Below, one piece after another: positions 35,767 to 39,332 of a DNA stretch of 64,000 nt. The position numbers and the translations under genes were made by a program. Each line of letters begins with the position of its first letter. Position 1 is the first letter of the stretch. The notes below the pieces were generated by a model. The model did no database searches and had not been told where the DNA came from. It saw only the letters and a program-made list of their open reading frames with translations. Origin of the DNA: Escherichia coli (GTDB lineage: Bacteria > Pseudomonadota > Gammaproteobacteria > Enterobacterales > Enterobacteriaceae); assembly GCF_022846255.1 (NCBI RefSeq), contig NZ_AP025682.1; one strand, written 5' to 3'.

Positions 35767-36960
35767 CTACTGCGCCTTCCTGTTTTGACGGGATGTGGCA
35801 TATGTCATCGCTACCGCTCCCAGAAGTAACAAACCACTTAAACCAAAAGCACTTCTCCATCCCAGACTGTCGAATACCAGACCTCCAGCTGTTGAACCAA
35901 GTGCAATAAATAACTGAATCACCGCAACCATGAGGCCTCCCCCCGTCTCTGCATCTTCGGGTAACGCGCGTGCTATCCATGTCCACCACCCCGTTGGCGC
36001 AGCTGTCGCAAGTAGCCCCCACAGGCTGAGTAGAACGGCAACAGCCCAGATATGGTGTCCGACCAGCAGTAGCGCACCGGTAATCGCTGCCATAAGCAAC
36101 GGGATCATGATTAAGGTCTTATAAAATGTGGTGTTCAGGAATGTTGAGACGATCATTGTGCCGACAAAACCTGCTACGCCTATTGCGAGCAAAATCAGAG
36201 AAAGATCAGAAGGTCCCACTCTGGTGACGCTCTCCAGAAAGGGGCGCACGTAGGTAAATAAAGCAAACTGTCCCATAAAGAAGAGTCCGCAGGCCAGCAG
36301 TCCCGTTGGTACGATGGCAACGCTGAACAGGCGAAGCACAGATCTCTGTGGCTTTTGTGTTTTATCACTTTCCATCGGAGGCAGACTGACCCATTGCCAG
36401 ATGAACGCAGCTATCGCAAGGGGGACCAGACATAAAAAGGCCCCACGCCAACCGATGGTTGTCCCCAGATAGCTACCAAGCGGCGCTGCTACAACGGTGG
36501 CCAGCGCGTTGCCGCCGTTAAAAATTGCCAGTGCGCGGGAAACCTGGTGCTGCGGCACGAGCCGAATGGCGGTTGCAGCCGACATTGACCAGAACCCTCC
36601 GATGACAACACCAATCAGAGCCCTCCCCAGCATATAAATCGGATAGTCAGGTGCTATAGTGATAATTATTCCCGATATGGCCATTAAGACCGTCAGTCCT
36701 AGCAAAAGATATTTTCGATCCAGGTCTCCGACAATACGGGAGATAGTCAGACTGGTAAGCACCGCCAGCGCACCAGAGACAGCAATTCCTTGCCCTGCCA
36801 GCCCTTCGGTAACGTGCAAATCATGGGCAATGAGCGTAAGCAGGCTGACTGGCATAAACTCAGAAGCGATCAGCACAAACACGCAAAGCGTCATGGCGAA
36901 TACGCCGCTCCAGTATGCATGCGTTTTTCCGTATGATTGTTTGAGACTTACAGTGGACAT
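35767..36960 (-). CDS. MFS-family transporter (12-TM efflux-type permease)
   Basis: 397-aa hydrophobic ORF with MFS-like topology. Occupies the position where torS is expected from K-12 gene order. Confidence 0.8.
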   Translation of the reverse strand: MSTVSLKQSYGKTHAYWSGVFAMTLCVFVLIASEFMPVSLLTLIAHDLHVTEGLAGQGIAVSGALAVLTSLTISRIVGDLDRKYLLLGLTVLMAISGIIITIAPDYPIYMLGRALIGVVIGGFWSMSAATAIRLVPQHQVSRALAIFNGGNALATVVAAPLGSYLGTTIGWRGAFLCLVPLAIAAFIWQWVSLPPMESDKTQKPQRSVLRLFSVAIVPTGLLACGLFFMGQFALFTYVRPFLESVTRVGPSDLSLILLAIGVAGFVGTMIVSTFLNTTFYKTLIMIPLLMAAITGALLLVGHHIWAVAVLLSLWGLLATAAPTGWWTWIARALPEDAETGGGLMVAVIQLFIALGSTAGGLVFDSLGWRSAFGLSGLLLLGAVAMTYATSRQNRKAQ

Positions 36961-37137
36961 TATTAGCCCCCCTTAATATCGAACCAGCCAGATTCAGGCG
37001 CAGTCGGGTCAGAAGTTATTCAGGGAATAACGACATAATAGTTGGGTGAGAATAGAGGGCGATGCGGCATATTCTGCATCACACCAGACAGTTAAAAGCC
37101 ACCCGTTTACGACAGGTGGCCTGGTAAACCTTTCGGG

Positions 37138-38289
37138 TTATCTTAAGTTTGCCTTGAAAAATTGCTCAAATTTGGCAAATGGGATCTTACCCGCAACGTT
37201 GTCGTACAGATCAACATGGTTTGCCCCGGGGACAATCACTAACTCTTTCTCTTTGCTGCCGATTGCCTTAAAGGCATCTTCAGCAAAATAGCGTGAATGG
37301 GCTTTTTCACCGGTCACGATGAGTGTAGGGATAGTAACTTCATTAGCATAACTCAGCAGCGGCATATTCATAAATGACAGCGGCATGGTTGCATTCCAAG
37401 CACTGGTTGAGTTGACCGAACGCGCATGGAAACCACGCGGCATGCGGTAATAATCAAAGAACTCTTTCAATACCGGATTTGGATTCGCTGGCAGAGTTTC
37501 CGGCAAAATACGATCGGAAGCGGTGACGTTGCCCTTCTCATCAACGTAAATATCATGCCCGCCTGGCGCGAAAGCGCCATTTTCAGCATCCTTCCAGCGC
37601 TGCATGTTCAGATACTGCAATACGGCACGACGATCGGCAGTGGTGTAGCGGTCTTTGCCATCGCCCACGCCATGCCCCATTGCACGGCTCATGTCATACA
37701 TCACGCTGCTCGCCACCGCCTTGACACGTGTGTCCATCGCGGCGTCGTTTAAGGCCATGCCACCCCATCCGCAGATGCCGAGCAACCCGATACGGTTGCG
37801 ATCCACCTCTTTTTGCAGGCCTAAGAAATCAACCGCCGCGCTGAAATCCTCGGTGTTGATATCCGGAGATGCGACGTTTCGCGGGTAGCCGCCGCTTTCA
37901 CCCGTGTATGAAGGGTCAAAAGCCAGAGTGACAAACCCCCGTTCAGCCAGCGTCTGCGCATACAGGCCACTGGATTGCTCTTTCACCGCCCCGAAGGGGC
38001 CACTAACAGCAATAGCTGCCAGCTTGCGATCGCCACGATCCTTCGGTATATAGAGATCCCCGACTAAGGTGATCCCGTACCGGTTCGGAAAGGTCACCTT
38101 ACGGTGATCAACTTTCGTGCTCTCAGCAAACGTTTTATCCCATTTCTCGACCTGCGAAACGGGCGCGTTCGGATTGGTTGTATCAGCGTAACTCATATTT
38201 GTGACTCCATTTAATGATACGCATAACAGCATGGCGGGTATCGCAGCTGTCAATTTTTGGGTGAAAGCAGTCATCAAAATTCCCCTCAT
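37138..38289 (-). CDS. Secreted alpha/beta-hydrolase-fold protein (dienelactone-hydrolase-like)
   Basis: 383-aa ORF with N-terminal signal peptide and a GICGWGG nucleophile-elbow-like motif. Divergent from the LysR gene. Confidence 0.7.
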   Translation of the reverse strand: MRGILMTAFTQKLTAAIPAMLLCVSLNGVTNMSYADTTNPNAPVSQVEKWDKTFAESTKVDHRKVTFPNRYGITLVGDLYIPKDRGDRKLAAIAVSGPFGAVKEQSSGLYAQTLAERGFVTLAFDPSYTGESGGYPRNVASPDINTEDFSAAVDFLGLQKEVDRNRIGLLGICGWGGMALNDAAMDTRVKAVASSVMYDMSRAMGHGVGDGKDRYTTADRRAVLQYLNMQRWKDAENGAFAPGGHDIYVDEKGNVTASDRILPETLPANPNPVLKEFFDYYRMPRGFHARSVNSTSAWNATMPLSFMNMPLLSYANEVTIPTLIVTGEKAHSRYFAEDAFKAIGSKEKELVIVPGANHVDLYDNVAGKIPFAKFEQFFKANLR

Positions 38290-38444
38290 AAAATGTGCCA
38301 GATACTGGTTTCAGACGGATAACACTGCTGTGCTTTGTTGCAACGTGCACATTATAGTTAGCATTAATAGTGCTAATTAGAGGGTAAAAAATGCTAAGAT
38401 TAATAACATATTGTTCTTAATCGTGATGCAGCAGCAGAGGAAGG

Positions 38445-39332
38445 ATGATGGCGAAACGGGAAAACTATAACGATCTCTATCTGTTTATGAAGGTCGTGCG
38501 AGAAGGGAGTTTTACCGCCGCCGCGCAGAGGCTTGGCCTGGCGCAGTCAGGAATTAGCCGTGCAGTGCGCGAGCTGGAAGAGCGACTGGGCGTGCAGCTT
38601 CTAGTACGCACCACGCGCAAGTTATCGCTCACCCATGCCGGCGAGTTATTCTATCGAAACGTCGAATCTGGATTTGACGCCTTAGATATGGGGCTTGCCA
38701 CGCTGGCCCATTATCGCCATACACCATCGGGTACGGTCCGAATTAATGCGAGCCAGCATGCCATTGATAAAGTGCTTCTGCCGAAGCTGGCGGTGTTTAA
38801 ACAACGATACCCGGATATTCGGCTGGAGCTCATCAGCGAAAGCCGGTTTGTCGATATTATTACTGAGCGCTTCGATGCCGGTATACGTCTGGGCTCGGAA
38901 GTGGATAGCGGTATGGTTGCGGTGCGCATTTCGCCCGATATGGAGATGGCCGTTGTCGGCACACCCGAGCACTTTCGTCGCTACGGATTTCCGCAAACCC
39001 CCACCGATTTAGTGGGTCATCCCTGCATCGCTTACCAGTTCGGCGACGGCAGCCTGTATGCCTGGGAACTCAATCAGGACGGTAAAAAGATCACCCATCA
39101 GCCTCAGGGACAATGGGCCTTTGCTGACAGTTATATGGAAGCCAAAGCCGCGAGGCTAGGTCTGGGACTGGCTTATGTTCCGGAGGAATTGGTGTCTGAT
39201 GATATAGAACAGGGGGCGCTGATCAGAGTTTTGCAATGCTACAGCCAACGCCTGGCAGGTTCATATATCTATTATCCGCACAGAAATGTGTCACCCGCTC
39301 TACGAGCGGTTATCGATACATTGAGAATTTAA
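38445..39332 (+). CDS. LysR-family transcriptional regulator
   Basis: 295-aa ORF with N-terminal LysR HTH (FTAAAQRLGLAQSGISRAVRELEERLGVQLL) and substrate-binding domain. Confidence 0.85.
   Translation: MMAKRENYNDLYLFMKVVREGSFTAAAQRLGLAQSGISRAVRELEERLGVQLLVRTTRKLSLTHAGELFYRNVESGFDALDMGLATLAHYRHTPSGTVRINASQHAIDKVLLPKLAVFKQRYPDIRLELISESRFVDIITERFDAGIRLGSEVDSGMVAVRISPDMEMAVVGTPEHFRRYGFPQTPTDLVGHPCIAYQFGDGSLYAWELNQDGKKITHQPQGQWAFADSYMEAKAARLGLGLAYVPEELVSDDIEQGALIRVLQCYSQRLAGSYIYYPHRNVSPALRAVIDTLRI

Follow-up and report, generated by a model that had tools for sequence, protein, structure and literature searches.

This analysis concerns a stretch of 64,000 nucleotides (nt) of Escherichia coli DNA (contig NZ_AP025682.1; hereafter the window) and, within it, a block of about 3.7 kb (35691-39406) with genes for a major facilitator superfamily (MFS) transporter, a secreted alpha/beta hydrolase and a divergent LysR-family regulator. 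The block is a discrete unit present in at least five mobile-element contexts, and here it forms the first of two cassettes of a cargo array (35691-42624) within a lambdoid prophage, which is integrated in the torT-torS intergenic region; the second cassette carries a dCTP deaminase gene. Both cassettes are bounded by short quasi-palindromes of two types, A and B, and cargo delimited by such sites, including many defence genes, is also found in phages, islands and bacterial chromosomes. As a whole, we explain the block as prophage cargo with a gene module of use to the host, which would move by means of its boundary sites; we regard this explanation as about evenly poised between right and wrong.

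A discrete unit in several mobile elements

Of 5,426 complete E. coli genomes, 102 carry the block at 97-99% identity: 96 copies lie in CP4-like integrative islands, where they adjoin a YeeP-type GTPase gene, two in P2-like prophages between the tail genes FI and G (the Z/fun hotspot) and two next to the integrase gene of a prophage close to yjjG. It also occupies the Z/fun slot of the Peduovirus phages vB_YpM_115 and vB_YpM_117, which were deposited as complete with Yersinia pestis EV76-CN as the recorded host, and is carried at 93.5% identity by a Kosakonia cowanii plasmid. The limits of homology are constant across these contexts, with the start at 35680-35691 and the end at 39398-39406. 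SF-468 has the same flanks as the window (35572-35705 and 39381-46483) and other genes in the first slot, namely a DUF4365 gene, an integrase fragment and a hypothetical gene, so that this slot is, on sequence comparison, a natural cassette replacement. A discrete cassette with defined boundary sites, common to several kinds of mobile element, had been missed by the first-pass annotation of the window. The features that place the array within the prophage are as follows.

35241-35312, no strand: torT-torS intergenic DNA of the chromosome, ending at the prophage junction on the attR side (K-12 homology)
35313-35509, no strand: attP arm of the prophage, 97% identical to the sister prophage of strain GPT24-01 and not in K-12
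35565-35690, no strand: backbone edge of the cargo hotspot, ending in ...ACTGTAGTGAAT and shared with SF-468 (L007:3951-4082, 84%)
42798-43109, minus strand: first conserved gene of the prophage beyond the array, encoding a membrane protein of 103 amino acids (aa); homology to the sister prophage resumes at 42846

The window carries torDAC, torR and torT, and its K-12 homology runs from 34001 to 35312, ending 11 bp before the K-12 torS ATG because the prophage is inserted at this point. The attP arm contains CAGTCACTAT at 35408-35417 and an inverted copy at 35440-35449, both read from the sequence, and we take this motif to resemble a lambda-type Int arm site. The GPT24-01 prophage, located at the same site, shares 34001-35509 and everything from 42846 onward with the window and lacks all that lies between, having 236 nt in place of the window's 7.3 kb. 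Since the block stands between the attP arm and the resumed phage backbone, it is inside the prophage, at the position of the b region of lambda. Like b-region cargo, it is found between an att arm and structural genes and is absent from a related prophage at the same site; the 103-aa gene is followed by tail-fibre genes, lom and J. The question whether the genes are chromosomal or carried by the prophage, which the first-pass annotation had raised, is thereby settled: they are prophage-carried, between the attP arm (to 35509) and the tail-fibre region (from 42846). Neither the window's junctions nor the three genes at the tor locus were found in any of the 5,426 complete E. coli genomes, so that the observation named in the first-pass annotation as its refutation did not appear.

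The same annotation had described the genes as lying in place of torS, which is correct as to position and not as to replacement, the prophage being inserted 11 bp upstream of the torS start. That torS might be merely displaced is seen in GPT24-01, where an intact torS immediately follows the prophage int gene, 43 kb away; the window itself ends before the far end of its prophage, and torS appears from the sequence to have been displaced rather than replaced here as well. If intact at the far end, torS would be cut off from its native upstream region. The backbone edge of the hotspot also recurs, next to different cargo, in two lambdoid contigs of IMG/VR (L020 and L021). The cargo-less prophages of GPT24-01 and Nord1 share with the window a small conserved hairpin (…GCAATCCAGTGCAAAGCTTTGC…) at 35527-35564, possibly a terminator that marks the backbone edge.

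Paired boundary sites and the arrays they delimit

The sites at the cassette ends are 24-bp quasi-palindromes of the form GTCCGCT(N)-8 nt-(N)AGCGGAC, with arms of 7-8 bp, and are arranged in the window as follows.

35691-35714, plus strand: site 1L, B-type, GTCTGCTA-TGAGCGAG-GAGTGATC (nhmmer match); left limit of the block in every context
39383-39406, minus strand: site 1R, A-type, read inward as GTCTGCTC-TGTGCCAG-GAACGGAC (nhmmer E 5e-9); right limit of the block in every context
39407-39424, no strand: 18-nt linker between the cassettes, CATCGGACTAAACTGAAG
39425-39448, plus strand: site 2L with the centre TGTGCGAG, an A/B hybrid (nhmmer E 3e-8); opens cassette 2
42601-42624, minus strand: site 2R, A-type (nhmmer E 1e-5); closes cassette 2

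The two types differ in their centres, which read inward are TGTGCCAG for A (on the LysR side) and TGAGCGAG for B (on the MFS side). The nhmmer site profile gives only four matches in the window, all at cassette ends, and one match in 281 kb of a shuffled control. Sites 1R and 2L fold together with the linker as an imperfect hairpin of ~70 nt (DNA fold -20.3 kcal/mol, z -4.9), and over 75 distinct sites the 8-bp stem is paired in 83% of cells, compared with 34-45% for slid partners. An Rfam scan of 35200-43200 detected no known RNA family and returned only sub-threshold miRNA-like matches on the hairpin. An intrinsic terminator or a sigma-70 promoter at the sites was rejected, the scans being not above shuffles and the sites having no T-run, and no fit was seen with ERIC/IRU, the E. 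coli REP (PU), Tn3/Tn21 38-bp repeats, attC cores, sigma-54 -24/-12 elements or dif, which serve as analogies only.

The same sites bound cargo in other elements. For instance, fun(Z) of phage P2 (L010, AF063097) is bracketed by an A site and a B site at 2836-2858 and 4934-4956, which are unannotated in the P2 record; the A site follows gene G by 61 nt and the B site precedes the pF promoter. At least one boundary site was detected in all 36 P2-like hotspots from IMG/VR with assignable G and FI genes, with the G-side site present in 34 and the FI-side site also seen in many, and hotspots with two cassettes contain an internal A-linker-B doublet. Further arrays were found in islands of CFT073 and strain H8 and in a P2-like prophage with two cassettes. 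A Rac-like prophage (IMG/VR L027, 7124-14179) has four consecutive site-bounded cassettes, encoding SIR2-like, AbiJ-N-terminal-like and HEPN proteins and an unknown protein of 323 aa, followed by the gene of the small recombinase described below. Chromosomal arrays with GNAT, glyoxalase, cupin and TauE cargo are present in Pantoea, Erwinia, Mixta, Enterobacter, Citrobacter and others. Those of Pantoea and Erwinia (L170, L171, L185, L189 and L155-L158) consist of single-gene cassettes split by A-linker-B doublets, with genes in both orientations, and recall sedentary integron arrays. Contigs of metagenome-assembled genomes from beta- and alphaproteobacteria (L181, L161 and L116) contain the 14-6-14 palindrome TGAACGTCCGCTTT-GTGCCA-AAAGCGGACGTTCA in direct orientation, spaced by 0.7-2.3 kb in the betaproteobacterial contig and more widely in the others, a conservation that extends across classes.

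When every detected site was typed by its centre as A or B, the inward-facing pairs that bound a long segment proved to be heterotypic in 110 cases and homotypic in 2, and the short doublets heterotypic in 55 and homotypic in 2; in the more independent genome loci alone the ratio is 53 to 2. Comparisons of one cargo in many contexts and of many cargos in one context show that the outer arm and the centre track the context and the inner arm tracks the cargo, which places the exchange point inside the ~8-nt centre. Uninterrupted identity between sites of different contexts extends over only ~10-16 nt. The 8-8-8 architecture of the sites (14-6-14 in the metagenomic copies) and the switch points within the centre are as expected of core sites of the lox/FRT/dif type. 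In E. coli, detection of the motif is almost confined to one or two places in each genome, and all four of those inspected lie in cargo regions of mobile elements; on long contigs, exact-pattern copies cluster in a few regions, as counted over exact matches and fetched loci.

A candidate recombinase and the proposed exchange of cargo

A tyrosine recombinase of 200 aa, which consists of the catalytic domain only, recurs in the arrays (L011:9116-9718, L012:4857-5459 and L232-L245). The protein, of which WP_001305361.1 of CFT073 is an example with the catalytic Tyr in VRYLG, matches Pfam Phage_integrase and is weakly Xer-like; it matched no curated family above cut-off and no solved relative. Among 16 IMG/VR loci with a homologue that matches over the full length at no less than 83% identity, a site begins 27-29 nt past the recombinase stop codon in 12, and in five a site also ends 33-48 nt ahead of the start codon. 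By visual alignment, conservation of the int module extends exactly from a B-type centre on the upstream side to an A-type centre on the downstream side; likewise, only positions 52-756 of the 831-nt query are matched in E. coli genomes. The recombinase gene is present in 716-928 of the 5,426 complete E. coli genomes (13-17%), including 42 plasmid places. A larger integrase of the Kosakonia plasmid and the prophage integrase of L109 were also considered and show no association with the arrays.

We propose that the A and B palindromes are core sites of this 200-aa recombinase, which is encoded in some of the arrays and would act in trans. Recombination of A with A and of B with B would swap or insert segments, and cargo could thereby hop between hotspots of P2-like phages, lambdoid phages, CP4-like islands and plasmids. 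Such site-specific exchange by the small tyrosine recombinase fits best, and we place it slightly short of an even chance; it is favoured because the sites are built as arm-centre-arm, with two conserved and mutually inverted centres, and alternate strictly, because breakpoints lie within the centres and because a recombinase is linked to the arrays. More tentatively still, with the A and B palindromes as heterospecific core sites of this stand-alone recombinase, a natural form of recombinase-mediated cassette exchange may shuffle defence genes, fun(Z) and the present module between phage, island, plasmid and chromosomal arrays across Enterobacterales.

Several observations weigh against site-specific exchange by this enzyme. 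The 64-kb window contains no recombinase gene and none was found beside the hotspot in the P2-like loci examined, so that the protein would have to act in trans; it could itself be just another passenger, and in the sites nearest to int the side that faces int is degenerate. Also, since the A and B centres are mutually inverted, a single event cannot excise a cassette, and either two events or circles of cargo plus linker are needed, of which no junction was observed. Covariation of the 8-bp stem over the 75 distinct sites does not exceed that of shuffles (85 of 500 shuffles reached the score), and the element is therefore treated as a conserved double-stranded palindrome and not as a proven hairpin. 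Finally, inverted palindromes of two alternating types are also known from the REP/BIME repeats of E. coli.

The alternative that survives best is that the boundary palindromes are repeats of the REP/BIME/REPIN type of Enterobacterales with no dedicated role in cassettes, the cargo being swapped by RecA, by lambda Red/RecET or by illegitimate recombination. It agrees with the occurrence of the motif in many Enterobacterales chromosomes at several copies per genome, with the location of the sites in the 3' regions of outward-facing genes, where REPs are also found, with the inverted doublets ~40 nt apart in which the motif often occurs and which fold into long hairpins, and with the lack of a recombinase gene in most arrays. 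However, the uniform polarity of the sites (110 heterotypic against 2 homotypic pairs) is unexpected from independent insertions, and the exact-pattern copies are clustered on long contigs rather than evenly dispersed. An identity of 10-16 nt is short for RecA or Red, the breakpoints fall within the 8-nt centre, and the near-confinement of the motif in E. coli to one or two places per genome, in mobile-element cargo where inspected, also weighs against it. We consider this alternative unlikely, more so than site-specific exchange.

It is improbable that the block is a non-autonomous transposon, such as a mobile insertion cassette or TIME-like element with terminal inverted repeats of ~24-38 bp and a transposase encoded elsewhere. 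The ends of the block are indeed imperfect inverted repeats (18 nt at 83%), which reach ~38 bp in the P2 and island contexts (CTAATCTGACA plus the site), and no mobility gene lies inside it. However, a target-site duplication is absent from all five contexts, the outer half of the repeat belongs to the context and not to the block, insertions are always into existing sites of the same family, and the likeness of the ends to Tn3/Tn21 inverted repeats is weak.

Site-specific exchange between A and B sites would bear on the turnover of phage defence hotspots. The hotspots of P2/P4 and other prophages swap defence cargo very fast, even where the core genes are identical, and the mechanism is open (Rousset et al. 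2022, PMC9122126); a preprint on hotspot swapping refers to this as occurring 'through a presumably different mechanism' (Moura de Sousa et al. 2026). The boundary repeats are mentioned in neither of these hotspot papers, the site sequence was found in no relevant paper by full-text search, and the literature on hotspots, cassettes and integron-like systems describes no such sites; the cassette architecture appears to be undescribed. With its A and B sites, their alternation, the exchange points in the centres and the linked recombinase, the window offers a concrete candidate mechanism for this turnover. If the proposal is true, the site system supplies the mechanism so far missing for this very rapid turnover, the sites provide a sequence-based means to delimit cargo cassettes and to find new defence genes, and they might give a natural two-site exchange tool.

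Cargo genes and comparison with known systems

The gene content of cassette 1 is ordinary, the cassette architecture being the unexpected part, and comprises the following features.

35767-36960, minus strand: MFS transporter, DHA1-like and NepI-like, 397 aa (Pfam MFS_1, E 9e-39)
37138-38289, minus strand: secreted alpha/beta hydrolase of the PA2218/YcjY family, 383 aa (PETase-like, Hydrolase_4 and DLH in Pfam)
38358-38376, no strand: dyad TTAGCA-N7-TGCTAA in the divergent promoter region, read from the sequence; a candidate LysR binding site
38445-39332, plus strand: LysR-family regulator, YafC-like, 295 aa (Pfam HTH_1, E 6e-24; LysR_substrate, E 3e-36)

The three genes are intact open reading frames as first annotated, with the LysR gene divergent from the hydrolase gene across a spacer of 155-170 bp that contains the dyad. 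Their E. coli-like composition is likewise evident from a G+C content of 0.50-0.52, compared with 0.32-0.34 for the next gene downstream, and the description as non-phage-like cargo with a divergent LysR-type module is supported. The LysR protein has the N-terminal HTH_1 and C-terminal substrate domains required of LysR-type regulators; it scores 200 bits against NCBIfam YafC, below the 470-bit cut-off, and the MFS protein 279 bits against NCBIfam NepI, below that of 584 bits. The hydrolase, for which the RefSeq-style start gives 37138-38274 and 378 aa, has a signal-peptide-like N-terminus (MTAFTQKLTAAIPAMLLCVSLNGVTNMSYA|D, read from the translation). It matches PA2218 (PDB 2HDW) over its full length (E 5.5e-123, query 13-381) and, more distantly, E. 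coli YcjY (PDB 5XB6; E 1.7e-42). Its G-x-C-x-G nucleophile elbow is GICGWGG, as in PA2218, and corresponds to GICAGAG in YcjY, with the Cys aligned in all three proteins; dienelactone hydrolases have the same elbow, and the HVDLYD motif of the hydrolase is conserved in the PA2218/YcjY alignment. A terminator-like hairpin (GGCCACCTGTCGTAAACGGGTGGC followed by TTTT) at 37095-37122 on the minus strand lies directly after the hydrolase stop codon, and the MFS gene may thus be transcribed separately or by read-through.

Homologues of the hydrolase with 85-93% protein identity are widespread in Enterobacterales, and in Klebsiella michiganensis and Citrobacter they are chromosomal and have the same LysR and MFS partners. 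The homology search for orthologues that the first-pass annotation had called for identified a chromosomal relative in E. coli, which has 78% DNA identity and is situated not at the tor but at the pao locus, adjoining paoD in 828 genomes including O157:H7. In O157:H7 (L296) the order is paoD-MFS-hydrolase-LysR, while K-12 (L295, 293-303 kb) keeps only a yagP fragment of the module, beside intF of CP4-6. In the CP4-like island of strain VTB96959v (L002:10463-11599), the hydrolase gene carries an internal stop and has a pseudogene annotation, indicating that the module is not maintained everywhere. In Pseudomonas aeruginosa, PA2218, PA2219 (opdE, a membrane protein) and a third gene, printed as 'PA2210' and taken here as PA2220, form an indel unit of 4,150 bp (PMC8088628, PMC12431658). 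As in cassette 1, the hydrolase gene there adjoins a membrane-protein gene. We take PA2220 to be a LysR regulator and OpdE to be an MFS protein. Structures of the PA2218/YcjY family have been solved and its activity is not assigned, the literature on PA2218, YcjY and opdE reporting no function, so that the analogy gives no substrate.

Based on these features, the LysR protein would sense a small molecule and activate the divergent hydrolase or hydrolase-MFS transcription unit. The hydrolase would be exported to the periplasm and, with a Cys nucleophile on a dienelactone-hydrolase-like fold, could cleave an exogenous compound of the ester, lactone or amide type; the substrate or the product would cross the inner membrane by way of the MFS protein. 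A catabolic or detoxification module, as first suggested, is a plausible candidate role of the block. This whole reading of the unit, as an accessory trait of benefit to the host and not a phage function, we hold at about even odds.

It is very improbable that the three genes are instead an unrecognised anti-phage defence system. The block does occupy the Z/fun hotspot of P2 phages, lies beside defence-type cargo in CP4-like islands and adjoins a dCTP deaminase gene in the window, but none of the three proteins matches any PADLOC family, close homologues in the same three-gene order are ordinary chromosomal genes in Klebsiella, Citrobacter and the E. coli pao locus, and a signal-peptide-like hydrolase with an MFS protein corresponds to no known defence architecture. 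That they are ordinary chromosomal genes of the strain's tor region, with torS pushed aside or lost, is suggested by their E. coli-like composition and already refuted by the position of the block on the phage side of the attP arm, its absence from the tor locus in all 5,426 genomes and the sister prophage without it.

Cassette 2 spans 39425-42624 and carries the following gene.

40218-41996, plus strand: homologue of the anti-phage dCTP deaminase (PADLOC dCTPase, E 5e-127)

This low-GC gene (33%) encodes a protein with P-loop and cytidine-deaminase regions, scores 370.7 bits against NCBIfam antiphage_deaminase, just under the 400-bit cut-off, and is present in only 5 of the 5,426 complete E. 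coli genomes. The window thus shows that ordinary metabolic modules, and not only defence genes, are cargo of such phage hotspots. At the end of the cassette, 600 bp (42012-42619) contain no long open reading frame and recur in other strains at ~92.6% identity beside other cargo, such as an ATP-dependent nuclease, always ending at the same A site; they are possibly a tail common to several cassettes, a small gene or an RNA.

The closest counterpart of the array is the Z/fun locus of P2, between the tail genes G and FI, which holds the very same 3.7-kb block in some elements and has the same A and B sites at its borders. In contrast to this locus, the carrier in the window is lambdoid, the slot adjoins attR and the cargo is metabolic and not defensive. 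The accessory genes and morons of the lambda b region are likewise non-essential cargo between the tail-fibre genes and the attachment site that is absent from a sister prophage; unlike these, the cargo described here is organised in cassettes with conserved paired sites that are common to unrelated mobile elements.

Integrons also contain arrays of promoter-poor cassettes, imperfect palindromes of ~65-70 nt that are able to fold and a linked tyrosine recombinase; in the Pantoea arrays, GNAT, glyoxalase and cupin genes are the typical cargo. However, an integron has one attC per cassette in direct orientation, with RYYYAAC/GTTRRRY cores and the integrase IntI beside attI and Pc, whereas each segment here has two heterotypic, mutually inverted sites without such cores, genes in both orientations and an Xer-like, catalytic-domain-only protein of 200 aa that is encoded elsewhere and not in the window. 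An integron cassette is thus ruled out by the number, orientation and core motifs of the sites. The pdif modules of Acinetobacter plasmids, bounded by XerC/D sites, likewise have inverted arm-centre-arm sites in varied contexts, but the present site appears unrelated to dif, its junctions are doublets with a linker and the candidate recombinase is not XerC/D. REP, BIME and REPIN repeats share the short palindromes of two types, the alternating orientation, the doublets and the location after genes, whereas the sites here are clustered and polarised in the loci covered, delimit swappable cargo and are rare in E. coli outside mobile elements. The proposed exchange of A with A and B with B resembles engineered recombinase-mediated cassette exchange, of which it would be a natural form.

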